Of a stretch of DNA of 64,000 nucleotides, positions 22,080 through 44,071 are shown piece by piece (position 1 is the first letter of the stretch; every line of letters starts with the position of its first letter). The position numbers were made by a program, and so were the translations under genes. The DNA comes from an uncultured Alphaproteobacteria bacterium. GTDB lineage: Bacteria > Pseudomonadota > Alphaproteobacteria > RF32 > CAG-239. The stretch covers positions 17,727-81,726 of the forward strand of contig CAKQMD010000003.1 in NCBI GenBank assembly GCA_934254925.1, given 5' to 3'. The notes under the pieces are model-generated. The model did not search any database. It saw nothing but the letters and a program-made list of their open reading frames with translations, and was not told the origin of the DNA.

Positions 22080-22089
22080 GCCCCAAAAG

Positions 22090-23052
22090 TCAAATATCCG
22101 GGAAGAGGCTCATGCCGCGGCTCATGCGCGTCATCTGCATTTCTATGGACGTTGCCAGATTGAGGCGGCCGCTTTTGATAATGCCGCGTACCTGGTCGCC
22201 TTTTGTGGTGTCCGGATTGGCAAACAAAAAAGTGGTTGCCGGTTTTTTGATGGTGACCCCGGCCAAAACCTGGTGCAAAACGCCGAGCATGCCGCGGGAG
22301 AAGAGGTCATAAGCCAACTCTTCGCTCATGGAGGTTGAGGCAGCATATTTCACTACCGAGGTAATGGCATCGGTGACGTTGTTGGCATGAATCGTCGACA
22401 AAACCAAATGCCCGGATGTCGCCGCCCGCAGAACTTCGCTGGCGGTTTCCGGCGTCAGGATTTCGCCCACCAAGATATAACGCGGCTTGGAACGCAGGGC
22501 CGATTTTAAGGATTCGCCCCATTGGCCGTTTTCCGGCACGGTTTGCTTACAAAGTCCGAGGCCGCCTCGCAGCGAGTGATAAACGCCGTCCAACGGCTGT
22601 TCCGTCGGGTCTTCAATCGTGTAGGCGAAACCGCCTTCGGTATTAAGATATTCTTTCAGCAGACTGGAGATGGAAGTCGTTTTGCCTTGTCCTGTCGGTC
22701 CTGACCATAAGATCAAGCCGGAGGTGTTGCTCAGTGACAGCAGATAATGCGCCAATTCCGGCGGAAAACCGAGGGAACTGAAAGCCGGCACCTGCGGCGG
22801 CATTTTGCGGGCGCAATATTGAATACCGTAAATGCTTTTTGTTCGTTCAATGCGGTAAAACAGGCCTTCATACAAAATAGAGTAGCTGGGGTTTTCGCCG
22901 TCCCAGGTCTTTTCGAGCAGTTCGATGAACTCTTTCAGATCGTCCGGTTCGATAATTGCCAGGCCGTTCGGCGTCCTTTTGTCTGAAATAAACGCTTGTT
23001 TGTCCGGCGTAATATAAATGTCGGAAAAGACGATGTCGTTGATTTTTGCCAT
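22090..23052 (-). CDS. stand-alone PilT/DotB/TraJ-like secretion ATPase (320 aa)
   Basis: Walker A GPTGQGKTT, Asp box YTIEDPTE, Walker B RYILVGEI and His box GHLVLSTIHANN. It has no N-terminal GspE-type domain and no Zn-binding cysteines, so it is the short hexameric PilT/VirB11-superfamily type. Confidence 0.85.
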   Translation of the reverse strand: MAKINDIVFSDIYITPDKQAFISDKRTPNGLAIIEPDDLKEFIELLEKTWDGENPSYSILYEGLFYRIERTKSIYGIQYCARKMPPQVPAFSSLGFPPELAHYLLSLSNTSGLILWSGPTGQGKTTSISSLLKEYLNTEGGFAYTIEDPTEQPLDGVYHSLRGGLGLCKQTVPENGQWGESLKSALRSKPRYILVGEILTPETASEVLRAATSGHLVLSTIHANNVTDAITSVVKYAASTSMSEELAYDLFSRGMLGVLHQVLAGVTIKKPATTFLFANPDTTKGDQVRGIIKSGRLNLATSIEMQMTRMSRGMSLFPDI

Positions 23053-23157
23053 ATTTCACCTCGAATCAAAAATTTTCTGAGTATAAGTCTAGCAAAACTA
23101 TCTTAATAAAACTTAAAAGACGTTAAGATAACGCATCAACCAGTGACGCAGGAAAAA

Positions 23158-24597
23158 ATGCCGCAGACTTTGTTGTTTTTGTTTATTGTCAGTTTAGAAC
23201 CGCTGCTGATGCATTTGCAGTTGTTTCCGCATATCGATTTTGGCAGCGCTTATGCCTTTGTCGTTTATTTTCAGGCATTGTTGTTTTTCGGCTTTTTGCT
23301 GACGCTGCGGCGACGTTGGGGAATTACCTTTTTTGTTGCGGAAGCGTTGGTCTTTTGGCTGTTGTTGCTTTATCATCGTCATTTTGAAGATCCCCTGACG
23401 CTGACGATTGCGACGACGCAATTATATGAAGGGCTGACTTTTGCCGGCAAGAGCCCGCGGTCTTTATGGAATTGGCAGATCGGACTTGTATTGGTCGCGC
23501 TGCTGTTTAAAATCGTTTTCATGAAGCGTTGGTATCGCCCCTTATACCCGGCCGGTTTGTTTCGCTTGGTGTTTTTTGTGCCTTTTCTGGCCTTGGGCGT
23601 CGTCACTTTCCGCAACTTTCACCGTCAGCCGTTCTATAACATGGATTTTCGGATTTATGCTGCCAGTCTGGGGTATCCGCAAGCCTGGATTTATGAGGTC
23701 TTTACTACCCTGGACCGCAGCCTTCTGATCGACAAGACCGTGGAGGCCTCCGCCGAAACCCTTGAGACCTTGCCGCCGGAACTTCAAGGCTTGTCCCTGC
23801 CGAACAACGTTTATTTGATTCAGGTGGAAAGTTTTGACTACCAAGCTTTCAGCGCGCGGGTCAATCAGAAGCCGCTGATGCCTTTTTTGAACCAAATCGC
23901 CGATTCCGCGGTGGTCTACCACTTGACGGATGCGCCGCATTATGCCTCGTCCAACGTTGATTTTACGATTTTGACCGGCGCGACCAATTCCCGAGATTTT
24001 TACATGGTGATGTATTACCTGCATCCCTGGAAGGTTTATCGGGAAGTAGAAACCCTGCCGAAGATCATGCGACAAAAGGGCTATTATAACAGTTTTTACC
24101 ATGGTTTTACCCGTCGTTTTTATGAGCGCGGCGTCAATTATGAACGAATGGCCTTTGATCGCCTTTATTTCAGTGAAGACCTGCCCATAACCGCAAAAGA
24201 AGGCAAATGGGGTTACCGTGATGCGGATCTTTTGTCCTTTGTGAGCGAAGACAACCGCAAAAATCCGGCGCCCAAGAAGTTCAATTTCATCATTACCGTC
24301 AGTTCACACGAACCTTTTGAAGTCGGCGAAATCCATCGGAAACCTTTTTCTCGTCCCGGAAATCGCCGAGAGCTCTATTATAACAGCATGAATTATGTGG
24401 ACCAAGCGCTGCAACGTCTGATAACCCAAGCGCCGAACGATTCTTTGTTTATTGTTTATTCTGATCACGCGGCCGACGTTCTGGAAAAAGAAGACACGCT
24501 GCTGCTGATTTATGACAAACGCGCCACGCGCCCTCATCGCAGTACCTATAGTTTTTATAAGATGCCGTTGCTGATCAAAACCTTGCTCAAACAATAA
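23158..24597 (+). CDS. LtaS/OpgB-like membrane-bound phosphotransferase (alkaline-phosphatase/sulfatase superfamily)
   Basis: About five N-terminal TM helices, then VYLIQVESFDYQAF, ASSNVDFTILTG (nucleophile region), WGYRDADLL and VSSHEPF. I prefer ATG 23158 (AGGAAAA RBS) to GTG 23143. Confidence 0.8.
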   Translation: MPQTLLFLFIVSLEPLLMHLQLFPHIDFGSAYAFVVYFQALLFFGFLLTLRRRWGITFFVAEALVFWLLLLYHRHFEDPLTLTIATTQLYEGLTFAGKSPRSLWNWQIGLVLVALLFKIVFMKRWYRPLYPAGLFRLVFFVPFLALGVVTFRNFHRQPFYNMDFRIYAASLGYPQAWIYEVFTTLDRSLLIDKTVEASAETLETLPPELQGLSLPNNVYLIQVESFDYQAFSARVNQKPLMPFLNQIADSAVVYHLTDAPHYASSNVDFTILTGATNSRDFYMVMYYLHPWKVYREVETLPKIMRQKGYYNSFYHGFTRRFYERGVNYERMAFDRLYFSEDLPITAKEGKWGYRDADLLSFVSEDNRKNPAPKKFNFIITVSSHEPFEVGEIHRKPFSRPGNRRELYYNSMNYVDQALQRLITQAPNDSLFIVYSDHAADVLEKEDTLLLIYDKRATRPHRSTYSFYKMPLLIKTLLKQ

Positions 24598-24624
24598 GCC
24601 TAAGTTTCAGCAATATATTGTCCT

Positions 24625-24651
24625 AAAAAAGCCCTGCCACAAGGGCAGGGC
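24625..24651 (-). terminator. rho-independent terminator of pilin gene 1
   Basis: The minus strand reads GCCCTGCC-cttgt-GGCAGGGC followed by TTTTTT, 25 nt after the stop codon. Confidence 0.8.
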
Positions 24652-24675
24652 CGGAGAAGATCCGCTGACGCGAGG

Positions 24676-25287
24676 TTAGTAATAGGTCCAAAGAATGCTG
24701 TTGTTGGTGTCCTTGGAGGCGCATTCGGCTGCAGCCTGTCCCAGCGAAATGGGGAGCTCGGTCGTAAGGGTTGTGCCGCCGGGTGTATGAACATTACCGC
24801 CCCCGGAAGAAACGTCCTCATCCCCTCCGTCGGAAGAGCTGCCGGAAGAACCGCTGCTGACTTGAATACTGTACAAACCTTCAGTACCCCAGTCGGAAGA
24901 TGCCAGAGAAGTACAAGTTTCGCGTCCCAAGCCTTTGAACTCGATTTGGAAACGTGCCACGTTGCCATCCTGAGCCTTGACGACAACGTCACCGCCGAAG
25001 GCATTGACGAACTTTTTGGAAGTTTGCACCATGTCTTGCGGCAAAATATTGTATTGATAAGCCGTTTCCGTGGTCAAACCCGCATAACTGGAAGCCGTGG
25101 CATAGGCCGTCCGAATGTTGATCAATAACATCGACATTTGATCCTGCGCCTTGGTCAGCTTAAATTTGGCCATGGCTTTGGAATAACCGGAAATACCGCC
25201 GACCGACAAGACACCGATAATGGCCAGCACGCCGAGCATTTCCACCATGGAACGTCCGGCTTGTTCGATTTTTGTGAATGTTAACAT
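24676..25287 (-). CDS. type IV pilin paralogue 1 (203 aa)
   Basis: Class III signal MLTFTKIEQAG/RSMVEMLGVLAIIGVLSVGGISGY, with Gly at -1, Glu at +5 and a hydrophobic alpha1-N. Two Cys flank a variable C-terminal loop. AAGGAGAAAG RBS. Confidence 0.85.
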   Translation of the reverse strand: MLTFTKIEQAGRSMVEMLGVLAIIGVLSVGGISGYSKAMAKFKLTKAQDQMSMLLINIRTAYATASSYAGLTTETAYQYNILPQDMVQTSKKFVNAFGGDVVVKAQDGNVARFQIEFKGLGRETCTSLASSDWGTEGLYSIQVSSGSSGSSSDGGDEDVSSGGGNVHTPGGTTLTTELPISLGQAAAECASKDTNNSILWTYY

Positions 25288-25327
25288 GATCTTTCTCCTT
25301 AAAAAAAATTTTTCACTCTATAGGGAA

Positions 25328-25356
25328 ATTATAGCAAAGCCCCTTAACGGCGACAA
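25328..25356 (-). promoter_or_regulatory. sigma70-type promoter with extended -10 upstream of pilin gene 1
   Basis: The minus strand reads TTGTCG-(17 nt)-TATAAT with TGc immediately upstream of the -10 (TGcTATAAT). The -10 ends 41 nt before the ATG. Confidence 0.5.
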
Positions 25357-25414
25357 TATCTCCTTAGCCATAAAAAGGGATCAGAGGATTATAACTTTAG
25401 TTATTCCGAAGTTA

Positions 25415-25441
25415 TAAAAAAGGCCCTGATAAAACAGGGCC
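25415..25441 (-). terminator. rho-independent terminator of pilin gene 2
   Basis: The minus strand reads GGCCCTG-ttttat-CAGGGCC followed by TTTTTT. Confidence 0.7.
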
Positions 25442-25464
25442 CGATCAGAGGAGTCAAAAAGAAA

Positions 25465-26046
25465 CTAGTAATAATACCAGGTAATGGTGTTGGTGGCGTC
25501 TTTGGTGTCGCAGTAGCCTTCACTGTTTGCGTCTTTTAAAGTGATCGGCAGTTTGCCTTTGGCTCCGTCACCGCCGCCGCCGGGCGTATGATAACCGGCC
25601 GTTCCCACCATAATACCGGCCAAACCTTCGGTACCCCAGTCGGAGGAGGCCAAAGAAGCACAGGTTTCTTTACCTAACCCACTGAATTTTATGTAAAAAC
25701 GCGAAACATCGGCGGCATCGGTTTTGGAACCTGTTCCGATCTCTACCGCACCGCCGAAAGCGTTGACGAAAACGCTGGAAGTCTGAACCATGTCTTGCGG
25801 CAAGATATTGTATTGATAAGCCGTTTCCGTTTCCAAACCGGAGTAACTGGAGGCCGTGGCATAGGCCGTCCGAATATTGATCAACAGCATCGACATTTGA
25901 TCCTGCGCCTTGGTCAGCTTAAACTTGGCCATGGCCTTGGAATAACCGGAAATACCGCCGACCGACAAGACGCCGATAATGGCCAGCACGCCGAGCATTT
26001 CCACCATGGAACGTCCGGCTTGTTCGATTCTCGAAAACTTTAACAT
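25465..26046 (-). CDS. type IV pilin paralogue 2 (193 aa)
   Basis: MLKFSRIEQAG/RSMVEMLGVLAIIG... The first ~100 aa are nearly identical to paralogue 1 and the C-terminus is divergent. GAGGAGAA RBS. Confidence 0.85.
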   Translation of the reverse strand: MLKFSRIEQAGRSMVEMLGVLAIIGVLSVGGISGYSKAMAKFKLTKAQDQMSMLLINIRTAYATASSYSGLETETAYQYNILPQDMVQTSSVFVNAFGGAVEIGTGSKTDAADVSRFYIKFSGLGKETCASLASSDWGTEGLAGIMVGTAGYHTPGGGGDGAKGKLPITLKDANSEGYCDTKDATNTITWYYY

Positions 26047-26200
26047 ATTTTTTTCTCCTCATCTTAATAATTTGTTTTGTGCAACCGTAAGACGGCACAA
26101 CCTTTTCTTCCGGTTTGCTTGCCGAAAAAGAAGGAAAAGCGTCAAATCTTATTTTCAATTATAAGGAAAATAAATTAAGAAATCATGAACGTTTGATAGA

Positions 26201-26226
26201 CAAAAAGCCCCGCGAAGCCACGGGGT
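26201..26226 (-). terminator. rho-independent terminator of pilin gene 3
   Basis: The minus strand reads CCCCGTG-GCTT-CGCGGGG (with one G-U pair) followed by CTTTTTG. Confidence 0.6.
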
Positions 26227-26254
26227 CAATTTGAGGAAAGACCATGGAACGATG

Positions 26255-26839
26255 TCAGTAATAAGTCCAGCGAATGGCATTTGTCGCGTCTTTTGAGGCA
26301 CATTCGATATTTGCCCGTGACAAGACGATCGGCAGGCTGCGCTCAATATCGTCGGAATATTGCAAAGTGTGGGATTCGTTAAACGTCGGCGCCGCCGATC
26401 CGTCGGAAGCTGTACCGACTTCAATGCTGTGCAGACCTTCGGTACCCCAGTCGGAAGTCGCCAGGGAGATGCAGGTTTCTTTACCCAGGCCGCGCAGTTC
26501 AATCGTAAACCGGGAGTCCGTATCCGTTCCCACCACGATTTCACCGCCGAAAGCGTTGACGAATTGGGTTGAGGTTTGAGCCATTTCCTTGGGCAGAATA
26601 TTATATTCGTAAGCCGTCTGCGTCGTCAGCCCGGCATAGCCCGAAGAAGTGGCATAAGCCGTCCGAATATTGATCAACAGCATCGACATTTGGTCTTGTG
26701 CTTTTGTTAACTTATACTTGGCCATGGCCTTGGAATAACCGGAAATGCCGCCGACCGACAAAACGCCGATAATGGCCAGCACGCCAAGCATTTCCACCAT
26801 GGAACGCCCGGCCTGTTCGATTTTTGCGATTGTAGACAT
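26255..26839 (-). CDS. type IV pilin paralogue 3 (194 aa)
   Basis: The start is set at ATG 26839 (MSTIAKIEQAG/RSMVEM...), preceded by AGGAGAAAG. The 16 extra codons in the ORF-track start are not conserved in the paralogues. Confidence 0.85.
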   Translation of the reverse strand: MSTIAKIEQAGRSMVEMLGVLAIIGVLSVGGISGYSKAMAKYKLTKAQDQMSMLLINIRTAYATSSGYAGLTTQTAYEYNILPKEMAQTSTQFVNAFGGEIVVGTDTDSRFTIELRGLGKETCISLATSDWGTEGLHSIEVGTASDGSAAPTFNESHTLQYSDDIERSLPIVLSRANIECASKDATNAIRWTYY

Positions 26840-26931
26840 GGTCTTTCTCCTGCTTAAGTCACTCTTTTCAGTATATAGTTTAACCAATTAACAAAGTCTG
26901 AACAAGAGTATCTTTAGTCATAAAAATTTAG

Positions 26932-26963
26932 CTGAAAAATCCCCGGAAAACGGGGATTTTCAG
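26932..26963 (-). terminator. rho-independent terminator of pilin gene 4
   Basis: 10-bp stem AAAATCCCCG / CGGGGATTTT with a 5-nt loop. A U-run continues from the stem on the minus strand. Confidence 0.7.
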
Positions 26964-26977
26964 GCTGAATATAAACT

Positions 26978-27556
26978 TTAGTAATAAGTCCAGCGAATGG
27001 CGTTCCCCGTATCCTTGGAGGCGCATTCCGTCGCAGCCTGGCCTAAAGGAATGGGAAGTTTCGTCGCGTCAGTTGTACCGCCGGGTGTATGAGCCGGCGC
27101 CGTATCGGCGGCAAAGGTTCCCGTGGCGTTCACGTCAACGCCGAGCAAACCTTCAGTACCCCAGTCGGAAGATGCCAGAGAAGTACAGGTTTCGCGTCCC
27201 AAGCCGCGGAAGATGATCTGAAAGCGCGCTTTGTTGGTTGGGGTCAAAACTTCTACCTCGCCGCCGAAAGCGTTGACAAAAACGCTGGAAGTCTGAACCA
27301 TGTCCTGCGGCAAAATATTGTATTGATAAGCCGTTTCCGTTGTCAAGCCGTCATAACTTGCCGCCGTGGCATAGGCTGTACGGATATTAATCAGCAGCAT
27401 CGACATTTGGTCTTGCGCTTTTGTCAGCTTAAATTTGGCCATCGCCTTAGAATAGCCGGAAATACCGCCGACCGACAAGACGCCGATAATAGCCAGCACG
27501 CCGAGCATTTCCACCATGGAACGGCCCGCTTGTTCAGTTTTTCTCCATTGCTTCAT
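26978..27556 (-). CDS. type IV pilin paralogue 4 (192 aa)
   Basis: MKQWRKTEQAG/RSMVEMLGVLAIIG... The architecture is the same and it ends in IRWTYY. CAGGAGA RBS. Confidence 0.85.
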   Translation of the reverse strand: MKQWRKTEQAGRSMVEMLGVLAIIGVLSVGGISGYSKAMAKFKLTKAQDQMSMLLINIRTAYATAASYDGLTTETAYQYNILPQDMVQTSSVFVNAFGGEVEVLTPTNKARFQIIFRGLGRETCTSLASSDWGTEGLLGVDVNATGTFAADTAPAHTPGGTTDATKLPIPLGQAATECASKDTGNAIRWTYY

Positions 27557-27606
27557 GTAAAAGATCTCCTGATATATGTAGTCAAAGTCTGTGGCTTTGT
27601 TCTTGA

Positions 27607-28191
27607 TTATTCAACACGCCAGAGCAATGTGTTTTTCTCAATACATATATCTTTAATCTTTTTATAATTAATTGGCAACTTCTTTTTACCCCCCCAAGTA
27701 TAATTTTCTTCAAATTTTTTATTGAAGACACTGAAGAGGACCACGTTCAACATGAAGCTGTCGTTGAAGTTGTGGGCTGCAAGAGCCTCGCAGTTTTTTT
27801 TGTCAAGACCTGTGAGGACAATGTCAAAAAAACGGCTCCCCGGCATAACGGTATAACCTTCTTTGCCGGTACCGATTTTGATTTCCGTCTGAAAAGGGCT
27901 CAACAATCGGCCGTCAACCGCCATTCCTTCGGGATATAACCGATTGTTGAGAACTTCTTTGTTGTTAAGGCCCCAATAGCTGGGACGATTGCGGTAAAAG
28001 CGCTGTATCTTCTGTTGCAGGGCTTCTATCTGAGCAGCCGCGACCTGAACTTGGGTCGATTCTCGCGGCGAAGAGCAGGTAAAGGGCAAAACCAAGATCA
28101 GAATCAAAAGTCCGACTGCGCCTGCCGCCGCGGCACAAAGCTTTCGGCGGCTGATGAAACGGATTTTGCTCACAAATGCCGAGACGGACAT
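27607..28191 (-). CDS. pilin-fold paralogue without prepilin cleavage motif (194 aa)
   Basis: It starts at ATG 28191, with GGGAG upstream and 4 nt after the platform-gene stop. N-terminal anchor RRKLCAAAAGAVGLLILILVLPF with no G/xxxxE. The rest aligns with the pilins: QIEALQQKIQRFYRNRPSYWGL vs QMSMLLINIRTAYATASSYAGL. Both Cys are conserved (KKNCEAL / DICIEKN) and it ends in LLWRVE vs IRWTYY. Confidence 0.6.
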   Translation of the reverse strand: MSVSAFVSKIRFISRRKLCAAAAGAVGLLILILVLPFTCSSPRESTQVQVAAAQIEALQQKIQRFYRNRPSYWGLNNKEVLNNRLYPEGMAVDGRLLSPFQTEIKIGTGKEGYTVMPGSRFFDIVLTGLDKKNCEALAAHNFNDSFMLNVVLFSVFNKKFEENYTWGGKKKLPINYKKIKDICIEKNTLLWRVE

Positions 28192-28195
28192 TTTT

Positions 28196-29317
28196 TTAAG
28201 CTCCCATACTGCTGGTAATTTGGTCTTGCATCTCAAAAGTACCCATCACCGCCCAGGCGATGACGCCGGCAATGGCCAATAACGCAACCATGTTCAAGAT
28301 GGAAGCTTTCTGCTCAATCAGATAAACGGATTCCTCCAGCCATTCGTTTGCCAAATTTTCCAGGGCTTCTTCAAAATTGTCCAGTTCGGAATAGATTTTC
28401 AAATCGGCGATAATCTCGGGATCTGGAAATGTCAGGCCGGTTTTGCTTAACGCCTGTCCCAGGTTGTCACCGTTGTTGACGTAAATCAGCGTCTTGTCGA
28501 TCCGTTCCTTCAAATACCGGCTGGCGTCTCGCCGCAAAGCGCGCATGGCGGTGGAGACCGGCGTTCCGCCCTTAACTAAGGCCGAAAGTGCCAAAAGCCA
28601 GCTGATTCCGGTAAAAATCTTATACAGGGACCAAGGCGGAACATGATCAAACCAAGCGCGGATTTGCCCGGTCCAAACGCCGATGGTAAAATAAATAATG
28701 GCCATGATCACCGGCAAGGTCGCAAAAGCCACCATCCAATATTTGCTGATCCAACCCGACAAATCGACCAAATTGCGTGCCAAACCGGTCCAGCGGACGG
28801 AAGGTGCCGCGTCGACCATCGGCGGCACCATGTAAACCCCGATGGCATAAATGATCAAAACCGCCATCATAAACAAAAAACTCGGATAAGCGATGGCGCC
28901 AACAATCGGACGAATCATCTTGGTGGATCCTTCGGTCACGCGGATCAAGTTCACCAAAGCTCCTTCCAGGTCGGAAACGTCGCCGACGGAAAGCATCAGT
29001 CTTTCCCGGTCAGGCGCCCAACCGCGCAAAGCGTCGGAAAAAGGTTCGCCGTTTTGCAGCGAACGGCCCCAATGGGCCAAAGCGATGGCCAAAGGTTCGC
29101 CGGGATTCTTGCCGCCGTTGCTGGCACTGTCGTAAAGCATGTCAAGCGCGTTCATCAAAGAAAATCGGTTGCGCATCAGAGAAGCGATTTTGCGATAAAT
29201 TTTCAGGCGAACGCCATTGGACATCTTAATGATCATCCTTGCATAATATTCTTCCACCTTGTTAAAGCGGCGGATGGCGTTTTGCATTGCTTCCGAGCGT
29301 TTAGGTTCAATTGCCAT
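28196..29317 (-). CDS. type IV pilus inner-membrane platform protein (GspF/PilC family; PilR-like in R64 nomenclature)
   Basis: 373 aa with a duplicated GspF-type cytoplasmic domain and three TM helices, for example SLMNALDMLY...PFSDALRG...ERLMLSVGDVSDLEGAL. Confidence 0.8.
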   Translation of the reverse strand: MAIEPKRSEAMQNAIRRFNKVEEYYARMIIKMSNGVRLKIYRKIASLMRNRFSLMNALDMLYDSASNGGKNPGEPLAIALAHWGRSLQNGEPFSDALRGWAPDRERLMLSVGDVSDLEGALVNLIRVTEGSTKMIRPIVGAIAYPSFLFMMAVLIIYAIGVYMVPPMVDAAPSVRWTGLARNLVDLSGWISKYWMVAFATLPVIMAIIYFTIGVWTGQIRAWFDHVPPWSLYKIFTGISWLLALSALVKGGTPVSTAMRALRRDASRYLKERIDKTLIYVNNGDNLGQALSKTGLTFPDPEIIADLKIYSELDNFEEALENLANEWLEESVYLIEQKASILNMVALLAIAGVIAWAVMGTFEMQDQITSSMGA

Positions 29318-29328
29318 GGCCTTTTTCC

Positions 29329-30993: not shown

Positions 30994-31002
30994 TTCCTGT
31001 CA

Positions 31003-32460
31003 TTACCTGATAATCATGTCATTGCCCATTCCCGGAATTGTCGTACTGGTTTTCAAAAACCTGTTTGCCGGAGAATCTGGATCGTTGTCTTCTTTGATCG
31101 CCGTTGCGTTTTCCACGGAATCCTTAAGGGTAATGTCGGTTTTAAGCGGTTCTTTGTCCAGAATGCCGCCGGCGGCGAAATAAAGATAATCTTTGATGCC
31201 GCCTTTGTCAGCCCGGATATAAGTTGAGGTAATCTCGTCGACAATGTGTCCGGTCTGTAAAGCCGTCCCGACCTTAACCATAAACGGCGTGCCGTCTTTG
31301 TTGATCAGTTTGGCAATCAGTTCGCCTCCTTTGCCGCGAATTTCCATAACGGCGTATAGGTCCGAAAGTTTAATGACTTCTTCGACGACAACCGGCTCCG
31401 CTTCGACTTTTGTTTCCTCGACGGCTTCTTCCCCTTCGGCAAACGGATTTTGTTTGGCCTGCATTTCTCTTTCCTGAGCCTCTATTCTGGCTTTCAGAAT
31501 GGAAATCTGCGTCTGCAGGTCATTAACCTGTTGGGCGAAAGCTTCTTTTGCCGCGGCCGCGTCTTGATTGGCTGTCGCAGCCAGTTGGGCGATCTCGTCA
31601 AATTTGGCGCTGATGTCTGCAACGAGTTCTTTTTTCTCGTTTTTCAATTGGTTCATTTGCAAATACAGGTCGCCGTTGTTCTTGACCCATTTCTGCGTCT
31701 CTTCCAACATCTGATTTTTATAGGCTTTCAAGAGCTTTTCCTGCCGTGCCTTTTCGTATTGGATGTCCAATTCCCGCAGTTTTTGCTTTTCCTGAATGAC
31801 TTTTTGTTCCTGCTCTTTTTCCCATTCGATCTTTTTGCGTTCTTTTTCTTCGGCTTTGGCTTTTTCTTCGTCAATGGCCTTTTGTCGCTGGTTTTTAATG
31901 GCTTCGATTTCGTTTTTCACCTTTTCGCGCCGCAGTTCCAAAGACAAAAGCGCCGTTTGTTTTTCAATGTCGGACATCTGCGAGAACAAATTATCGTCAA
32001 TCACGGCCGTTCCCGTGCCGAGAATGCCGTTGTCAGGCTCTTTTGCTGCCAAAACCGGTGCTTTTTCTTCCTCAGTTTCCGGCAGGTCTTGCGGCAGATT
32101 CAGTTCCAACCCCTGCGGTTGCGGAGCGGGGGATGCTGCCGGCGGTACCGGTGAGGGAACAACGTTGGTATTGGCGGCTTCTTCCGCGCCAAAGGGCAGA
32201 GTCCCCGAAGACGGCGGCGTTACCAGTCCCGCTGCGGGAGCGGCGGCGGGAACGGCTTCCCCTTCTTCTTCAAATAGGGAAATCTCGTCCGGAATGCTGG
32301 GATCGTCAAGCGTAGACTTGCTTTGCTGGCCGTTGGTCAGGGGAATGGTTTCTTCTTCAAGGGTGACCACGCCCTGCGCCCGGCTTTCAAAAGCCGCGGC
32401 AGCGCAAAGAACCAGAGCCAATGCGGTAGTGCCTAATGTCTTTTTAATTTCATAATGCAT
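31003..32460 (-). CDS. PilP-like pilus biogenesis protein with long Pro/Ala-rich and coiled-coil extension
   Basis: The start is set at ATG 32460 (MHYEIKKTLGTTALALVLCAAAAFESRAQG signal, GAGGGGA RBS). The middle ~250 aa are E/K/Q heptad coiled coil. The C-terminal ~90 aa (LYAVMEIRGKGGELIAKLINKDGTPFMVKVGTALQTGHIVDEITSTYI) look like the small beta domain of type IVb PilP. The call also rests on synteny. Confidence 0.45.
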   Translation of the reverse strand: MHYEIKKTLGTTALALVLCAAAAFESRAQGVVTLEEETIPLTNGQQSKSTLDDPSIPDEISLFEEEGEAVPAAAPAAGLVTPPSSGTLPFGAEEAANTNVVPSPVPPAASPAPQPQGLELNLPQDLPETEEEKAPVLAAKEPDNGILGTGTAVIDDNLFSQMSDIEKQTALLSLELRREKVKNEIEAIKNQRQKAIDEEKAKAEEKERKKIEWEKEQEQKVIQEKQKLRELDIQYEKARQEKLLKAYKNQMLEETQKWVKNNGDLYLQMNQLKNEKKELVADISAKFDEIAQLAATANQDAAAAKEAFAQQVNDLQTQISILKARIEAQEREMQAKQNPFAEGEEAVEETKVEAEPVVVEEVIKLSDLYAVMEIRGKGGELIAKLINKDGTPFMVKVGTALQTGHIVDEITSTYIRADKGGIKDYLYFAAGGILDKEPLKTDITLKDSVENATAIKEDNDPDSPANRFLKTSTTIPGMGNDMIIR

Positions 32461-33727
32461 AGATGATCCCCTCATATTCCCAAGTTTCATTACTCGGAGT
32501 ATATTTTATATTCTTAATCTCAAGTCCTGAAAATTTTGTTAACAAATCCGTCCATATTATTGGATTATACCGTGACGAGAAGCGAAAACCCAAAGCCGGA
32601 TAAACCGTTTTTTCCGGAGAAGTGTAGGATGTCCGGCTCAAAGAGATCTGTTGCCCGATGGATTGAAACAAATCATTGACCGTATTGCGCAGGTCTTCCA
32701 TATTTTTCATCGGCGGGGAAGAAATCTGCGAAATTTTGTTCAACGGCATGGTAACCGCCAAATTGGTGCCGTTGTCGGAAAACGAACGGCCCGAAAAGAC
32801 TAAGCCCGACTGGTCAAGCGCTTTTTGCGCCCAAGACAAACGACCGATCTTCATGCTCCAAGAGGTCATGACACCGTTGGCCGAACAGGCGACCGGTCCG
32901 ATCTCCCAGCCCGGCGGCATAATCTTAACCACGTCCTGTACGCCTTCGTAGCACTCTTTCATCGTCTGTGTCGGATCATTGAGCTTTTCCCAAGGTTTGA
33001 CTTCGGGAAGCTTCTCAATCTTAGGAACGACTTTGGGTTGTACCGGCACGACCACCGGCCTTTTGGTCGGAGTCAGAAAAATCTTGTCAATCAAGCTGGA
33101 GACCAGCCAAATGCCCACGACCGCCGAAATTACGACGACCATCAGCAGCTTGGCGCCGCGCAAGGCTTTGATCTTTTGCAGCTTAGACTTGACGCCTTTG
33201 GACAAGAGCCCGCTGAGCTGAACTTCTTCGGTTTCTTCGATACCCCATTCCGCCGGCGCAATTTTGCGGCCCCAATCGGGCACGGCCAGCATGGACATAA
33301 ATTGGTTTCTGGCGTCTTCCTCTTTCAAAAACAGCATATCGCCGTCGGAAAGGATAATATCGTTGCGGATACAGACATACCACCAACCTTCGTTAACCTT
33401 AAAGACGGCAATGAAAGAAGCCTTGTCCGACATGGCCGAAGCCAGCGAAACCGCCGCGACGTTTTCGCCGCTTTTGTACCCCTCGTGCGAGACGCAGATA
33501 CCGAACTGCGGCGCTTTTCCGCCCTTGATGCAAAACAGGTCGGCGCCTTCGAGAACCCCGGCGGAGGCTTCTTCCACCTCCATAAAGGGATCGTCTTTAT
33601 TCTGCAAAGGCTGCCAGAACAAGCTGGTTGCATAAGTTATGCCGTCCACCGCGATTTTGGTTCCCCAAGATCGCTTGGCGGTTTTCTCGTCATAATCTTC
33701 TTCCAATAATTTAGCTTCTTCCAGCAC
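32450..33727 (-). CDS. PilO-like (PilO2-type) type IVb pilus accessory protein
   Basis: 425 aa with one central TM helix (LLMVVVISAVVGIWLVSSLI). Its size and its position between the secretin and PilP-like genes match R64/PAPI-1 PilO. The call is mainly from synteny. Confidence 0.45.
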   Translation of the reverse strand: MLEEAKLLEEDYDEKTAKRSWGTKIAVDGITYATSLFWQPLQNKDDPFMEVEEASAGVLEGADLFCIKGGKAPQFGICVSHEGYKSGENVAAVSLASAMSDKASFIAVFKVNEGWWYVCIRNDIILSDGDMLFLKEEDARNQFMSMLAVPDWGRKIAPAEWGIEETEEVQLSGLLSKGVKSKLQKIKALRGAKLLMVVVISAVVGIWLVSSLIDKIFLTPTKRPVVVPVQPKVVPKIEKLPEVKPWEKLNDPTQTMKECYEGVQDVVKIMPPGWEIGPVACSANGVMTSWSMKIGRLSWAQKALDQSGLVFSGRSFSDNGTNLAVTMPLNKISQISSPPMKNMEDLRNTVNDLFQSIGQQISLSRTSYTSPEKTVYPALGFRFSSRYNPIIWTDLLTKFSGLEIKNIKYTPSNETWEYEGIIYAL

Positions 33728-33745
33728 TCTTTTTCTCCGTGAGAA

Positions 33746-35347
33746 TTACAGGTCTTTCATCCGCGATTCCGGGGTCAGCGGCGATTCCAAAACCACCGGT
33801 GTCAAAATGATGACCAACACGCTGCGTTTTTTTGCCGCCTGTGCGTTTCCGCCCAAGAGCGAATTGGTCGCCGATCCTGTTCCTTCTTTGGATGTTTCGT
33901 TCGAGACTTTTTCATACCCGGTCAAAATCAACGATTCTCCGGAAGTCATGGCCACTTCCTGCGTAAAACCGCGAGATTCGATCTTTGGGTTCTGAATATA
34001 TTGGTTGTCTTCTTCGTTTCCGAAGTTGACCGCTTCCAGAGAAATCAGGTCCGACAGCGTCAGGTTGAACATGATCAACATCCGGCCGTGTTCGAGAATA
34101 CGCGGCAAAACATCCAGGGTAAAGCCGTATTCGACTTCTTCCGTGGTTACCGAGATGTCATAGTTATTGCCGTCCGTTCCGCTGTTGGTTTTGGTCATTT
34201 CGGCAATGTAGTTTTCTTTGGTCATCACCTGGATCGGCGCCGGCTTGTTGTTCAGCGTCGTCACCGTACCGCTGGTGATCAAGCTGGTGGTCTTCTGCGT
34301 CGACAAAGCCTGCACGGCAGCGTCGGCCGTCCAGTTGCCGCTGATCAATCCCCAGGAAAGCGTATCGGACATTCCGTCACCGGTAGCCACGCCGGAAGCG
34401 CCGGCCATGCCGATTTTGGTGACTCCGTCGTCAAAAACAGCTTTAAGATTCAGGCCGTATTTGTCGGAATCGTCCAAAGTAACCTGCAGAATTTTAACGC
34501 TGATGGCCACTTGCCTGGATAAACGGGCATTTTGTTCGTTAATGTATTTTGCCACTTTTTTGATGTCATTGGGCGTCGCCGTCAGAGAGATCGTCCCGTC
34601 AGCCGGAGACATTGTCAGTTTTGCGCCGCTGTCGATCATGGAAGTAATTGTCTTTTCGATGTTCCCCCATAATTCAACTTCCGCCGAGCTTGACAGCGAG
34701 ATGGACGAACTGCCGCCTCCGGAAGAAGAGTTGCCTCCCACGTTCACCGACAAGTTTGGTTTTGTCGGCAGACTGTAGACGACAAAGGTCTTGGTGATGT
34801 ACTTGTAGAACATGATCTCGCCTTTTTCGTATTTCCACCAAATACCGAACCGATTGGCGACTTCATTGAGCAAACCGCTCAACGGCCCCTGATAAGACAA
34901 AAGCATTTTGTTTGGTTCCGTCCAGTCGACGTTGATGGATTCCGGCGTCGGCTTGTTGGCTTCGGCATTTTTGAAGACGTCAGCCTCCAGCTGCGGTGCA
35001 TAACGAACGCCCAGCGAGGTGATTTTATTGATCATGTCGCCGATTTCAAACAGGGTGATCGGACGATTGCTGATCAAGGTAATGCCGTCTTTGGTCTCCA
35101 AATAGGAAGGCAGCGGCTGTCCCTCATATTCCACTTCGCTGGTGTCGCCGAGCCAAATTTCGTCTTTGACCTTGACCAAAGAGTCATTGGCCTTGGTGGT
35201 GGGAATCTTCGCTTCTTCTTTTAACTTCGTTGTTGCGTCGACTTCTCTTTCCACGGTTGCGTCCATGCTGGTGGAAATGGAGCATGAAGAAAGGCTTGCC
35301 CAGGCAAATGCCGCCAGTGTCACGGTTGTAATTTTAGTTATATGCAT
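33746..35347 (-). CDS. lipoprotein secretin of type IVb pilus (PilN-like)
   Basis: Signal plus lipobox MHITKITTVTLAAFAWASLSSC. The C-terminal secretin domain reads ...VTTLNNKPAPIQV...GFTLDVLPRILEHGRMLIMFNLTLSDL...SVLVIILTPVV. Confidence 0.8.
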   Translation of the reverse strand: MHITKITTVTLAAFAWASLSSCSISTSMDATVEREVDATTKLKEEAKIPTTKANDSLVKVKDEIWLGDTSEVEYEGQPLPSYLETKDGITLISNRPITLFEIGDMINKITSLGVRYAPQLEADVFKNAEANKPTPESINVDWTEPNKMLLSYQGPLSGLLNEVANRFGIWWKYEKGEIMFYKYITKTFVVYSLPTKPNLSVNVGGNSSSGGGSSSISLSSSAEVELWGNIEKTITSMIDSGAKLTMSPADGTISLTATPNDIKKVAKYINEQNARLSRQVAISVKILQVTLDDSDKYGLNLKAVFDDGVTKIGMAGASGVATGDGMSDTLSWGLISGNWTADAAVQALSTQKTTSLITSGTVTTLNNKPAPIQVMTKENYIAEMTKTNSGTDGNNYDISVTTEEVEYGFTLDVLPRILEHGRMLIMFNLTLSDLISLEAVNFGNEEDNQYIQNPKIESRGFTQEVAMTSGESLILTGYEKVSNETSKEGTGSATNSLLGGNAQAAKKRSVLVIILTPVVLESPLTPESRMKDL

Positions 35348-36005
35348 TCTCATCCTCCATGGTTTCAATGACCAAGACGCGGTTGCCTTTGTAGAAGGTT
35401 GCTACCGGCGCCGGCTGTGCCCTGGCAAAGGCGCGGATCAATGCCGAGCTCACGTCGGCAAAGCGCCCGCGGAACATGGCGCCGGCTGTAAGGGTATAAT
35501 TTCTGTTGGTGTTCCAAATCAGTCTCCAGCCCGAACGATCACTCCATTCCGTGAGCAGGCCTTTTAAGGTTTTACCTTCTTCTGCCAACCAATCCTCGAC
35601 GGGATCTTCGCCGTTAAGCGCCTCTTCGGAAGCCGTATCGTCGCTGTTTTCGCTCATGGAAATTTCTTCTTCATAGTCAGTAACCTCTTCCTCGATTGTC
35701 GGAGGAATGGAAGCCGAGACGTTGCTTCCGGCACCGGCCTGGACAATTCTCTGGTCGCGGGGCGTTCTCTCGCCGAACTCTCGGTAATCGGCCGCCACTT
35801 GGGTATAGTTGACAAACTCGTCGTCAGGAACCGCGGCTGCCGGTGCTACCGTCCGGGTTTCTTCAATATAGATCTGATCTTCCTCGGAAGGCGCCCATCC
35901 GTCTTGAAAACAGGCGCAGCCCGCTGTCAGCGTAAGGAGCAGCAGGCCAAAAACAATCGGCACTTTCTTGTCCATTTTTTTGTTCCTTGAGTTAAATTTT
36001 GTCAT
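35334..36005 (-). CDS. lipoprotein with C-terminal TcpQ/PilL-like domain (putative pilotin/secretin partner)
   Basis: Lipobox LLTLTAGC, then an acidic linker. The C-terminus LKGLLTEWSDRSGWRLIWNTNRNYTLTAGAMFRGRFADVSSALIRAF...FYKGNRVLVI follows the TcpQ-domain pattern. It lies immediately upstream of the secretin gene. Confidence 0.5.
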   Translation of the reverse strand: MTKFNSRNKKMDKKVPIVFGLLLLTLTAGCACFQDGWAPSEEDQIYIEETRTVAPAAAVPDDEFVNYTQVAADYREFGERTPRDQRIVQAGAGSNVSASIPPTIEEEVTDYEEEISMSENSDDTASEEALNGEDPVEDWLAEEGKTLKGLLTEWSDRSGWRLIWNTNRNYTLTAGAMFRGRFADVSSALIRAFARAQPAPVATFYKGNRVLVIETMEDENAYN

Positions 36006-36061
36006 AGTTTTTCCTATCATACATATTGAAAAATAAATAATCAAGCTTCAGGCGCAACTTA

Positions 36062-37774
36062 TTACCATTGCATATAACCTCCCTGATAAACCTGACGATT
36101 ATTTCCCGCGGTCATCTCTTGGTTGTTGTTTAATTTTATGGTCCTAATAATAAAGGAATTGGGTTCCCGGTTGGTAAAAACCGTGTTGATCTTACTGTAG
36201 TCGACCCCCCGGCTGGTTAAAATGTTGTGTAGCAGGTTTAGTCTTTTTTGCTGCAGTTCCATGGCGCTTGTGCCGTCAATTCTCACCTCGATGCCGGTTG
36301 AGGCATCTTCTTTGATCTTGTTGGCAAAAGCCTGAATCCAGCGCAATGTCTGTCCCGAAATTTCCGCTCTGTTCGGCTGAAAGGACAAGCGGATTTCCAC
36401 CGGCAGAATTTTTGTGTGCCTTTTGGGGTGTTCGGTCTTTTTCTTAACGCGCCAAAAGTCAGCGGCCTGTTCTTTGACGGATTTTTTATTCTGTGCTTCG
36501 TCGGCAGTTTTGTCTTCGCTGAACAGGGAAGAGATACTGCTGATCAGATCTTTTTTGCTGTTGGTCGCTTCTTTTTCTTCCGTCTGCAAAACCGTTGCCT
36601 TCGTTTTTTCTTCTTCGACCGGTTCGGGGGCCGGTAACGGAGCCGCTTCGGCAATCGGCCTCAGAAGCGGAACGTCTTTTTCTTCCTGCTGTCCTTCTTT
36701 CATGCGGCGAATGTATTCCGCGTCCGTCCCTTTGCGCGGAGAAACGAGTTGCGGCGTCAGGTTTTTGTCGTTCAAGATATCTTCGGGGATCGGGATCAGA
36801 ATGTTGTCAATGGTTTCCGAAGCCATGGCCACAGCCTCTTCTTGTGAAATTTTAGCCTGGCGGCTCAAAGTGTCTTTGATCTCTTCCGTCGAAGGTTTGG
36901 CATAATCTTCCTGTAAAACCATGGCATTTTTGGGATGCTTGCTTCCCTTGGCTACCAGCCAGGGGTTGTCGTTGCGTCCGCTTTTTTCCGCCATGCTTTC
37001 CCATTCGGCGGCCGGAGCCGTTTCTGCGGCGTCTGCGGGCATTTGCGCCGGTGTTTCAAGGCTTTTCATGCTTGAGATCGGAATGTCGGCGTCTGCCAAT
37101 GCGACTTGGTTTTGCGGCGCTTGCTTGGCCACGCGGGCCCCTTTATCTGCAAGCAACACGTCTTCCGCGCTTTTTTCCAGGGGAATAATCAGCTGCGGTT
37201 CGTGGTTTTTCTTTTGTGGAGACGCCGCCGGCAGGGTCGGAGCGCTTTCAAGCGCAGGTTTTGCCTCCGGCGCATAAATCGGTGCCGACGCTTCCGCTGC
37301 GGCCAGTTTTATCGGTTCCGGCGGCAAAAGCGGTTTTCCTTTGGCCTTTTCCGTAGTCGGCGGCCGTTTGATGACCTCCTGAAAATTGTCGCTGATCAGC
37401 CGGTTGGGAGGGGTTGGGGCCGAGAGACGTTTTTCTGTCGGAAGTTCGGAGGGAAAATCAAGCATGTCTTCCTCGCTGACGGAAGCCAAGATAACGTCGC
37501 TTTCGGCGTTGATCGGAATAAGCTCCGCCGCGTATTCGGCTGTCGTTTGCGGCTCTCGCAAAACCGAAAGCGCAATTTTTTTGACCGGCGCCGGGCGAAC
37601 AGAGGGGGAAGTCCGCGCTTCGTCTTTCAAAAACAGCAGAATATTTTTTTCAGGAAGGTTAATTTCTTGATTTTCAAGGGATTTTTTATGCAAAAATACT
37701 CCGTTTACCGAAAAAATCAGAAACAGAGAAAAAACAAAGCTGCAAACAAAAGTTTTAAAAGCCGCTTTTTTCAT
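36062..37774 (-). CDS. membrane-anchored, largely disordered P/A/E-rich protein with degenerate OmpA/MotB-like C-terminal domain
   Basis: 570 aa with an N-terminal TM helix (FVCSFVFSLFLIFSVNGVF) and about 400 aa of low complexity. The C-terminus IEVRIDGTSAMELQQKRLNLLHNILTSRGVDYSKINTVF resembles the OmpA_C pattern (GhtD...N..LS..RA..V...L...GV). First gene of the pilus operon. Confidence 0.45.
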   Translation of the reverse strand: MKKAAFKTFVCSFVFSLFLIFSVNGVFLHKKSLENQEINLPEKNILLFLKDEARTSPSVRPAPVKKIALSVLREPQTTAEYAAELIPINAESDVILASVSEEDMLDFPSELPTEKRLSAPTPPNRLISDNFQEVIKRPPTTEKAKGKPLLPPEPIKLAAAEASAPIYAPEAKPALESAPTLPAASPQKKNHEPQLIIPLEKSAEDVLLADKGARVAKQAPQNQVALADADIPISSMKSLETPAQMPADAAETAPAAEWESMAEKSGRNDNPWLVAKGSKHPKNAMVLQEDYAKPSTEEIKDTLSRQAKISQEEAVAMASETIDNILIPIPEDILNDKNLTPQLVSPRKGTDAEYIRRMKEGQQEEKDVPLLRPIAEAAPLPAPEPVEEEKTKATVLQTEEKEATNSKKDLISSISSLFSEDKTADEAQNKKSVKEQAADFWRVKKKTEHPKRHTKILPVEIRLSFQPNRAEISGQTLRWIQAFANKIKEDASTGIEVRIDGTSAMELQQKRLNLLHNILTSRGVDYSKINTVFTNREPNSFIIRTIKLNNNQEMTAGNNRQVYQGGYMQW

Positions 37775-38105
37775 AAATTTAAACCCCTCTAAAGCCTTGA
37801 TAAATCAAAATGCGACTCTTGGCAAGAGGATATAAAAATTAGGCATTTTTTTGTGGATTCTTTTAAATTTTCCGTTTTGCGGAGCGGAGAAAAACTTTTG
37901 CGAAAAAACAAAGCCGCTGTCGGCGTTTTGCGTTCTTTACGTCTTCTTAACCAGTGTGAATTTTTTGTTACAGCAAAAAAATCCTAGTGTAAACAATATG
38001 TTAATCCTTTTTTGCTATAAGCTTTTCTGCTGGTAAAAAAAGCAAAAATCCGCTATTCTAAAAGAGTATAGAGAGTTTTGCGCAAACATTAGAAGGAGAA
38101 GTACT
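37775..38105. promoter_or_regulatory. 331-bp divergent control region between pilus operon (-) and T4SS operon (+)
   Basis: AT-rich and non-coding. On the + strand it contains TTGTTA-(17 nt)-TGTAAA (37965-37993) and an extended -10-like TGcTATAAG (38013-38021). AGGAGAAG RBS precedes the 38106 start. Confidence 0.4.
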
Positions 38106-43780: not shown

Positions 43781-44071
43781 ATGCGGGAAATGATCTTAAA
43801 AGCCGTGGCCAATCCGCCCAAGATTTTGTGGGGACCCTTTCTCCCCACCATGTTGAACATGGGCGTGCAGTTCCCGTTAATGTTCATGTTTCTCGGCACT
43901 TTTGACGTCAACCCGCTGTTTTTTATGGCGTCTTTGGTCGCCGTTCACTGTTTTGTCATCTTTTTAGGTGTCAAGGAACCGCATATTTCGGCCATGATCC
44001 AGGCCTACGGCCAGACAAACCGCACTACAACCAACCTGTATAAAGTAAAGGGGAAAAAATTTGCACCCTGA
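43781..44071 (+). CDS. virB3: VirB3/TrbD-like T4SS inner-membrane protein
   Basis: 96 aa with two hydrophobic segments and an N-terminal KAVANPPKILWGPF block. It is immediately upstream of VirB4 and overlaps it by 11 nt. Confidence 0.75.
   Translation: MREMILKAVANPPKILWGPFLPTMLNMGVQFPLMFMFLGTFDVNPLFFMASLVAVHCFVIFLGVKEPHISAMIQAYGQTNRTTTNLYKVKGKKFAP

Follow-up and report, generated by a model that had tools for sequence, protein, structure and literature searches.

An R64/BFP-type type IVb pilus cluster in the core chromosome of uncultured gut Alphaproteobacteria, encoded back-to-back with a VirB-type type IV secretion system

Thin pili of the R64 type have been known mainly as conjugation helpers of plasmids and integrative and conjugative elements (ICEs), or as adhesins of a few pathogens. 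In the IncI1 plasmid R64, the pilI-V genes have the core order TcpQ-PilL, PilN, PilO (PF06864), PilP (TIGR03021), PilQ, PilR and PilS, and they also lie beside a type IV secretion system (T4SS), which is Dot/Icm-like. Chromosomal R64-variant type IVb clusters without a dedicated peptidase have been described as Tfp7 of Burkholderia pseudomallei (BPSS1593-1601) and pil2 of Pseudomonas aeruginosa PAPI-1 (PMC3984277). PAPI-1 relies on the type IVa peptidase PilD to cut its pilin, and Tfp7 is conserved across its genus with a TcpQ protein in the place of PilL (PMC3984277). The bundle-forming pilus (BFP) of enteropathogenic E. coli has its genes in the order G-B-C-U-D-E, which are the counterparts of a TcpQ-like protein, lipoprotein secretin, PilO2, the PilP position, ATPase and platform; the gene of BfpF, a small PilT-like ATPase for retraction, comes next. 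In the present study, we analysed 64,000 nucleotides of DNA (the window) from an uncultured alphaproteobacterium (contig CAKQMD010000003.1 of assembly GCA_934254925.1, positions 17,727 to 81,726), in which a type IVb pilus cluster (22090-37774, minus strand) is placed back-to-back with a VirB-type T4SS. With confidence only a little above even, we read this locus as a functional, vertically inherited type IVb pilus of the R64/BFP lineage that belongs to uncultured flagellated gut Alphaproteobacteria and captures target cells for the neighbouring T4SS. The literature searched contained no study of pili or T4SS in this gut alphaproteobacterial clade.

The pilus genes follow each other with nearly no non-coding space. 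They are transcribed in the order OmpA-fold gene, TcpQ lipoprotein, PilN secretin, PilO2, PilP, GspE ATPase, GspF platform, pilin-like gene, four prepilins and PilT-like ATPase, and a single plus-strand gene of the LtaS/sulfatase family (23143-24597) lies between the pilins and the small ATPase. The preliminary description of this DNA had listed the pil genes from an OmpA-like protein to the pilins; all of them were present on the minus strand in the order that it gave, and this observation was confirmed in full. Its list for 22090-38105 did not hold the PilT-like ATPase, the LtaS/sulfatase gene or the count of four major pilins and one non-canonical pilin-like protein. The cluster has the same core order as R64 at a protein identity of ~27-35%, but the partner here is a VirB-type system in place of the Dot/Icm-like one, and the genes are chromosomal and vertically inherited whereas R64 is a conjugative plasmid. 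The PilU peptidase, PilT lytic transglycosylase, PilV adhesin, shufflon and PilI/J/K/M of R64 were not found here. Conversely, an OmpA-fold anchor, a 495-aa coiled-coil PilP, an anchored pilin-like protein, four variable pilins and a PilT-like ATPase are extra to the R64 set.

The locus also shares much with BFP, because the pilins and PilO2 match the BfpA and BfpC structures and a BfpF-like small ATPase is present. The BFP cluster differs by its pilin gene in first position, its own peptidase BfpP, transglycosylase BfpH and minor pilins BfpI/J/K, and it is plasmid-borne and has no T4SS partner. Since the core order is common to BFP and a BfpF-like ATPase is encoded, the label "R64/PAPI-1-like" of the preliminary description suits the cluster best without being exclusive; that the cluster is of the R64 PilL-N-O-P-Q-R-S kind stands. 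Tfp7 and PAPI-1 carry PilV and PilM, neither of which is found here, and PAPI-1, unlike the fixed locus of the window, is a mobile ICE whose T4SS is of the G type. Tfp7 is not described beside a T4SS in PMC3984277. The cluster of the window, in contrast, has several paralogous pilins, and nearly all genomes keep it together with a VirB-type T4SS. Among plasmids, the best PilN matches (29-30% identity) were in Thalassospira xiamenensis NZ_CP004389 and Bosea sp. pANAM02 NZ_AP022849. These plasmids carry the same TcpQ, PilN, PilO2, hypothetical gene in the PilP position, ATPase and platform, together with a ~340-aa small ATPase (38% identical), whose gene in the Bosea plasmid follows the platform gene. 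The Thalassospira plasmid has an A24 peptidase, DotD/TraJ-like (Dot/Icm-like) genes, an integrase and a type IV coupling protein (T4CP) nearby, and both plasmid clusters differ from ours by a single pilin and by no annotated OmpA-fold first gene. The chromosomal location and the missing local peptidase are therefore not new, as PAPI-1 and Tfp7 are precedents for both, and the lack of a peptidase does not speak against membership in the R64 variant. What is new in relation to the known systems is the OmpA-fold first gene, the threefold-elongated PilP, the anchored pilin-like protein and the multiple hypervariable pilins that replace PilV and the shufflon, and also the conserved pairing with a VirB-type T4SS, whose VirB10 is giant and which looks non-conjugative, with no relaxase or T4CP nearby.

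The main evidence for a common function is this pairing. We detected 271 relatives of the pilus ATPase (PilQ), with one genome scanned per species, and compared the best 80 by tblastn of all window proteins against the 80 related loci; the related sequences are contigs of metagenome-assembled genomes throughout. When the contigs that occur in both the PilQ and the VirB4 hit lists (n=40) were compared by their coordinates, the two systems were 8.5-32 kb apart on the same contig in 40/40 cases, the distance in the window being 13.1 kb. The clusters are adjacent and divergent in 31 of these contigs, divergent with an insert of 5-19 kb in 7, and in tandem in 2, where the T4SS lies downstream of the pilins; a third genome (L014, outside the 40) has the same tandem layout. 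In the rearranged lineages the housekeeping flank was exchanged and the T4SS still adjoins the pilus cluster. That the T4SS stays the neighbour when the other flank changes is the best available argument for a linkage under selection, as opposed to one that is simply inherited. A role of the pilus as helper of the T4SS is considered the most likely because the two clusters adjoin in nearly every genome, even after rearrangement. Further support comes from plasmids, on which thin pili of this family usually occur together with a transfer system: of 2948 plasmids that carry a relative of PilN, 2478 (84%) are predicted to be conjugative.

We also found that the locus is a core, vertically inherited part of the chromosome and not an island. 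The best 80 relatives are gut metagenome-assembled genomes labelled as Alphaproteobacteria, 'Azospirillum sp.', Proteobacteria CAG:495 (CAG-495) or Ca. Scatocola, from sources that include humans, deer, mice, rabbits and chickens, and the identity of the PilQ ATPase among them is 78-90%. The pil gene order recurs in most of the 80 loci, so that the synteny is conserved in relatives, and the recurrent arrangement is VirB2 (divergent), OmpA-fold gene, PilL-N-O-P-Q-R, pilin-like gene, pilins, PilT-like gene, PRT, AhpC, VWA, PP2C and kinase. A housekeeping flank is common to ~45/80 loci. To the left of the cluster lie PBP1, PolA, GyrB, a porin, a flagellin, an ABC transporter and a VWA-PP2C-kinase triad, in agreement with the housekeeping neighbours reported before. 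Beyond the window, where flanks were read on contigs such as CALXVU010000039.1 (GCA_944392195.1) over 10 kb on the left and 7 kb on the right, the left extension held housekeeping genes only; the right extension held, after VirB11, a flagellin gene and then three genes without a Pfam or NCBIfam match. The protein divergence of the locus across dozens of species matches that of the neighbouring genes, and the GC content is flat (0.47-0.52), like the flanks. The reading as a core locus follows from these two points, namely that the same position and flank recur in dozens of species and that the GC content does not shift.

The lack of mobile-element hallmarks noted in the preliminary description was borne out over the wider region. 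There was no tRNA in the window and no att-like repeat, the longest border repeat being 14-16 nt, which is at chance level. No integrase domain occurred among the scanned open reading frames of the window or the called genes of the two flanks, and neither a relaxase nor a T4CP was found in the window, the 10 kb on the left or the 7 kb on the right. A standard ICE just outside the window, which would have changed the picture, was thus not seen in the flanks. In addition, T4CP and integrase queries from the Thalassospira plasmid had no match in 3.26 Mb of clade loci (167 loci). A mobile-element reading was rejected on these grounds. The terms "domesticated" and "island" of the preliminary description were not supported: the GC content is flat, the position is the same in dozens of species and no mobile origin was demonstrated.

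The assembly machinery begins with a 570-aa protein (36062-37774, minus strand), which has an N-terminal transmembrane segment (residues 5-23), a variable low-complexity linker rich in Pro, Ala and Glu, and a conserved C-terminal domain of ~110 aa. It had no Pfam or NCBIfam match, and homologues of its C-terminus are unnamed proteins only (45-80% identical), none of them with a Pfam domain. A profile of 40 orthologues searched against the PDB retrieved solely Pal/P6, at E 0.97. In a comparison of folds, an AF2 model of the last 135 aa, built on the alignment of its homologues, had a mean pLDDT of 78.7 with a core >90, and a Foldseek search of the PDB with the modelled C-terminus found the peptidoglycan-binding domains of OprF, Pal and MotB (E 3e-6, probability 1.00, TM score ~0.5-0.56). 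In OmpA-like domains, the Asp of GxTD and the Arg of RRA contact peptidoglycan. In the Pal/P6 profile alignment, D65 falls on the GxTD Asp and R76 on the RRA Arg, and both residues are invariant or nearly so in the 40 orthologues. Sequence profiles had failed, and only the comparison of folds settled the call: the assignment in the preliminary description holds at the level of the predicted fold, as a protein anchored in the inner membrane that has an OmpA-fold domain.

The next two genes encode lipoproteins. The PilL/TcpQ-like protein (35334-36044, minus strand; lipobox LTAGC) scored 60.3 bits with Pfam TcpQ against a cutoff of 27 and is 39% identical over 90 aa to a TcpQ-domain protein of the Thalassospira plasmid; no PilL-specific NCBIfam model matched it. 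The PilN-family secretin (33746-35368, minus strand; lipobox LSSC) reached 50.3 bits with Pfam Secretin, above the cutoff, and matched TIGR02520 (PilN) at E 6e-82 with 275.8 bits, which is 12 below the curated equivalog cutoff of 287.65, while the runner-up family had 114 bits. It is 27-30% identical to plasmid PilN/BfpB proteins. The bitopic assembly protein of PilO2/BfpC type (32450-33727, minus strand) covers the full PAP_PilO profile (PF06864) with 59.4 bits against 26.7. Its layout comprises a cytoplasmic N-domain, a single central transmembrane segment (~residues 190-214) and a periplasmic C-domain, and by phmmer it matches the structure of the BfpC N-domain, 3vhj, at E 1.8e-5. The PilO2/BfpC family has an actin-like fold (PMC3984277).

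The long PilP-like protein (31003-32490, minus strand; 495 aa) consists of a signal peptide, a Pro-rich region, a coiled coil of ~200 aa and a C-terminal PilP domain. Its gene stands between those of PilO and the ATPase, as in R64, and its length is ~3x the usual one. TIGR03021 matched it at E 1.7e-7 with 32.3 bits against a cutoff of 34.65, and the same model matched 29 of 31 PilP orthologues of the clade at E<=1e-3 (best E 8.5e-10). The PilO-, PilL- and PilP-like assignments made from the sequence alone did not fail in profile searches, the PilP-like one standing at the expected position but scoring a little under the cutoff. The assembly ATPase, which is PilQ in R64 naming and a member of the GspE/PilB family (29329-30993, minus strand), reached 223 bits with Pfam T2SSE and 205-225 bits with the GspE and PilB families, and is 34% identical to a Salmonella plasmid PilQ. 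The platform protein PilR, of the GspF family (28196-29317, minus strand), matched Pfam T2SSF with 80.5 bits over two stretches and has three to four transmembrane segments.

Four major prepilin genes are encoded on the minus strand at 26978-27556, 26255-26839, 25465-26046 and 24676-25287. All four products match Pfam PilS (PF08805; 48-53 bits against 22) and Bundlin (34-47 bits), and the pilins hit the BfpA structure 1zwt at E 1.9e-5. Their leader and processing site reads ...EQAG↓RSMVEMLGVLAIIGVL (EQAG↓RSMVEMLG, the arrow marking the cut), with Gly at -1, Glu at +5 and an unusual Arg at +1. The paralogues are 70-78% identical in pairs. The first ~100 aa are nearly identical and the divergence is concentrated between two conserved Cys, that is, in the surface-exposed D-region, which is hypervariable. 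A 300-nt repeat at the 5' end of the prepilin genes has 82-90% DNA identity, so that frequent or recent gene conversion among the copies is unlikely. Terminator-like hairpins stand 3' of three of the four prepilin genes (26208-26225, 25421-25442 and 24630-24652). In the relatives, there are between 0 and 4 copies of the major pilin gene and the G↓RSMVEM site hardly varies, and pilins of genomes whose ATPases are ~90% identical share only ~42-59% identity.

Directly after the platform gene lies the gene of an anchored pilin-like protein (27607-28191, minus strand), which scored 28.7 bits with Pfam Bundlin against 22.3 and occurs at this place in 78/80 related loci. An N-terminal alignment of 45 orthologues revealed no G↓xxxxE site; instead, there is a basic cytoplasmic N-terminus and a plain, uncleavable-looking transmembrane anchor. 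The protein retains the pilin alpha1-C helix and the two D-region Cys, aligned with those of the major pilins, to which it is 24% identical. It could be an assembly-initiating pseudo-pilin that replaces the missing minor pilin. The class-III signal peptides in the window are four in number, all of them on the major prepilins, and therefore no PilV-like or other canonical minor pilin is encoded there. Searches by tblastn with plasmid queries for PilV and for the lytic transglycosylase had no match in the window or the 80 related loci. Likewise, two A24 prepilin peptidase queries from plasmid pil clusters had no tblastn match in the window, the 80 related loci or the 167 loci (3.26 Mb), so the absence of a local peptidase and of a PilV-like pilin, reported in the preliminary description, was upheld.

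Several relatives show rearranged or reduced pilin loci. Five loci without a major pilin gene nearby (L004, L033, L036, L043 and L044) retain the entire assembly operon, the anchored pilin-like gene and the PilT-like gene, and the major pilin must be encoded elsewhere or have been lost in these species. In three other loci (L023, L025 and L048; 14-21 kb of each), the major-pilin segment is inverted relative to the pil operon, with a breakpoint that adjoins the pilin genes. The inversion in L023 and L025 includes the housekeeping flank out to the PilT-like gene; in L048, the pilins and the PilT-like gene alone were detected.

The last gene of the cluster encodes a small hexameric ATPase of PilT/BfpF-like type, a candidate retraction motor (22090-23052, minus strand; 320 aa). 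Its best NCBIfam model was pilT_fam, with 104 bits, far under the cutoff of 319, and TraJ/DotB-like scores were not far behind. The best PDB matches were PilT structures (2gsz/2ewv, E 1.7e-21). Its length of 320 aa and the absence of a PilB-type N-domain fit PilT/BfpF, and it is 38% identical to its counterpart in the pil cluster of the Thalassospira plasmid. The gene adjoins the pilins in 45/80 loci. We also considered that it might be a second VirB11, and this was rejected, because the T4SS has its own VirB11 (TIGR02788, 146 bits) and only the P-loop core is common to both.

The neighbouring T4SS starts on the plus strand with a VirB2/TrbC pilin (38106-38447; Pfam TrbC 39.5 bits) and contains VirB2, VirB4, two VirB8 paralogues, a VirB9 (CagX) fused to SPOR and a beta-flower protein. 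VirB4 (44061-46493) matched TIGR00929 with 382 bits and has an N-terminal transmembrane segment. Past the right end of the window follow a 1500-aa VirB10 and then VirB11. The system is of VirB type (VirB2-VirB11), as had been described. The VirB10 domain scored 113 bits with ComB10 and 102 bits with VirB10. Neither a polytopic VirB6-like protein nor VirD4 was recognised among the proteins of the T4SS region (38106-64000 and the right extension). VirB2/TrbC-like segments occur in three proteins of this region, of 113 aa, 230 aa and 1459 aa (window 38106-64000 and L081:13454-18937). The first ~1150 residues of the 1500-aa VirB10 are beta-flower repeats, and the region also encodes a 1139-aa beta-flower/RHS-repeat protein and a 1318-aa protein without a family match.

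The two operons are separated by a divergent control region (37775-38105), which extends from the first pil start codon to the VirB2 start at 38106 and measures exactly the 331 bp reported before. An alignment of 22 species defined its invariant blocks. The pil-proximal block (37782-37828) contains the palindrome CTCTTGCCAAGAG, a promoter-like pair TTGCCA-17-TATCAA and a ribosome-binding site; the T4SS-proximal blocks upstream of VirB2 are at 37955-37971, ~37987-38004 and 38046-38070. A consensus sigma-70 scan of the intergenic region gave 0 sites, so that TTGCCA-17-TATCAA is a putative pil promoter. An Rfam scan of 21900-38400 gave nothing significant. The palindrome CTCTTGCCAAGAG is unique to the pil promoter. 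A single common operator for both operons was considered and remained unsupported, since there is no motif enrichment, the palindrome is pil-only and the blocks segregate with their operons. The best interpretation of the 331-bp spacer is a back-to-back pair of autonomous control modules.

In one lineage, represented by L002:99-3028 and L118 (contig CASEYY010000015.1), an insert of ~6.5 kb lies exactly between the pil and the T4SS promoter blocks. The ~3 kb of it that were read in L002 encode two proteins, a tyrosine recombinase of 300 aa (Phage_integrase, 157 bits) and one of 680 aa that matches no family. This insert may be a small integrated element that targets the divergent spacer.

From these parts, the following mode of action can be proposed. 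The GspE ATPase and GspF platform would polymerise one or more of the up to four variable PilS-type pilins, after an A24 peptidase encoded elsewhere had cut them behind the Gly of ...QxG↓RSMVEM, as with PAPI-1 and Tfp7. PilO2, with its cytoplasmic actin-like domain and transmembrane segment, and the long coiled-coil PilP would link the inner-membrane platform to the outer membrane, where the PilN secretin would form the exit pore, aided or stabilised by the TcpQ-like lipoprotein. The first-gene product may tether the apparatus to peptidoglycan through its OmpA-fold domain. The PilT-like ATPase would retract the fibre. The hypervariable disulfide-bounded D-regions and the variable copy number would give receptor or antigenic diversity, like the PilV shufflon in R64. 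In this way, the pilus would seize a target, which may be a host cell, a protist or another bacterium, and draw it close for the action of the T4SS, comparable to the thin pili in liquid conjugation. The conserved linkage suggests, without being proof, that pilus and T4SS are coupled in cell contact rather than in plasmid transfer, and on the same basis we hold with moderate confidence that the pilus supplies target capture and close apposition for the T4SS. The two-filament adhesion/secretion function of the preliminary description is likewise a possible reading of this linkage; the two promoter modules are separable.

A number of observations weigh against capture of target cells for the T4SS by a functional pilus. 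Synteny is high region-wide and the adjacency may partly be inertia. The conserved blocks of the control region are operon-specific, each moving with its own operon when the clusters split, and an AAWTYCACA-like shared motif was not enriched in this region (4 found against 4.06 expected). No major pilin gene is found nearby in at least five loci with intact flanks, which are the five named above, and ~20/80 loci have no PilT-like gene beside the pilins. Moreover, the score of the PilT-like protein far under the family cutoff means that "retraction" is assigned by best similarity. Neither a prepilin peptidase nor a canonical minor pilin was found in the searched loci, so that the assumed processing and priming depend on unseen genes. 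Finally, the parts were established from sequence and predicted fold, and their actions are taken from family knowledge. The main rival reading is a pilus that serves colonisation or aggregation by itself, in the manner of BFP in bundling, S. Typhi PilS in adhesion or Tfp7, and that would adjoin the T4SS without any coupling because this part of a small, syntenic chromosome rarely rearranges. Such a pilus is a serious explanation, although we judge it to be somewhat unlikely. R64-variant pili do act alone as adhesins or biofilm factors in other bacteria (PMC3984277, PMC6232867). The housekeeping flank is likewise conserved in ~45/80 loci, 5-19 kb of unrelated DNA separates the clusters in 7 contigs, and each promoter block is self-contained and goes with its own operon. 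However, the rearranged lineages swap the housekeeping flank and retain the T4SS neighbour, in two different orientations, and the two systems stay within 32 kb in all 40 shared contigs.

The two systems might also work in DNA exchange, either as an ancient, fixed conjugation system whose relaxase and T4CP are encoded elsewhere or as a ComB-like uptake system aided by the retractile pilus. Retractile type IV pili commonly take up DNA, most plasmids with a PilN relative (84%) are conjugative, the VirB10 domain fits ComB10 slightly better than VirB10 (113 against 102 bits), and no T4CP occurs in the cluster, as in ComB systems. Against this, VirB11 is present and VirB10 and the accessory proteins are giant and repeat-rich, unlike ComB; the locus is fixed and vertically inherited; and the 81 kb that were read hold neither a relaxase or T4CP nor an oriT-like feature, an integrase or an att site, while T4CP and integrase queries had no match in the 3.26 Mb of clade loci, so that DNA exchange appears improbable. 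A recent mobile island, that is, an ICE or integrated plasmid with borders outside the window, is effectively refuted and deserves hardly any credence. Its gene families are typical of ICEs and IncI plasmids and the L002 lineage has a tyrosine-recombinase gene between the clusters, yet the flanks (10 kb on the left, 7 kb on the right) hold housekeeping or flagellin genes, no tRNA, direct repeat or GC shift marks a border, and the context is the same in dozens of species with divergence like that of the neighbouring genes. A bolder form of the preferred reading may be put forward tentatively, although we think it rather doubtful. In this form, the pilus and the giant-component T4SS would be one obligatory "catch, reel in, inject" apparatus that transfers no DNA, with multi-copy hypervariable pilins that set the target range, and would define how this widespread, uncultured order lives, be it as epibionts or predators attached to other microbes or in intimate contact with host cells. 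If this were true, it would be a case of a thin pilus that left conjugation for the delivery of effectors and became fixed in a core genome.

The machine that elsewhere helps plasmids and ICEs is here a fixed chromosomal trait in at least 80 species-level gut genomes from humans, ruminants, rodents and birds. Should the linkage be functional, it would indicate contact-dependent biology in a gut bacterium that is common but uncultured, and would give a natural instance of a thin pilus re-used for effector-type secretion. The conserved promoter block, the pilin processing site and the new OmpA-fold accessory protein may be useful as handles for metatranscriptomic, structural and cultivation-guided work.

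Among the further genes of the locus, the LtaS/sulfatase-family gene (23143-24597, plus strand) encodes a membrane enzyme of the alkaline-phosphatase superfamily with five transmembrane segments (Pfam Sulfatase 93 bits; NCBIfam LtaS E 1e-11). It was found in ~10/80 related loci, always between the pilin array and the PilT-like gene, and is thus an optional accessory. In Neisseria, pilins carry phospho-form modifications made by enzymes of the alkaline-phosphatase superfamily. By analogy, the enzyme of the window might possibly modify pilins.

In the left part of the window, a 621-aa open reading frame without a Pfam or NCBIfam match (6246-8111, minus strand) lies between PolA and GyrB. Two unusually long flagellin genes stand on either side of the two systems: one at 12589-14463 (minus strand; 624 aa), 8 kb to the left of the pilus cluster, and one at L081:19133-21166 (677 aa), just to the right of the T4SS and directly after VirB11. 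The triad of a VWA protein, a PP2C phosphatase and a Ser/Thr kinase (17996-20881, minus strand) is conserved and lies ~1.2 kb to the left of the pilus cluster. It could be a regulatory module, and proximity alone ties it to the pilus. Its VWA protein, of 229 aa, is 84-94% identical across species and is the most conserved gene in the neighbourhood.

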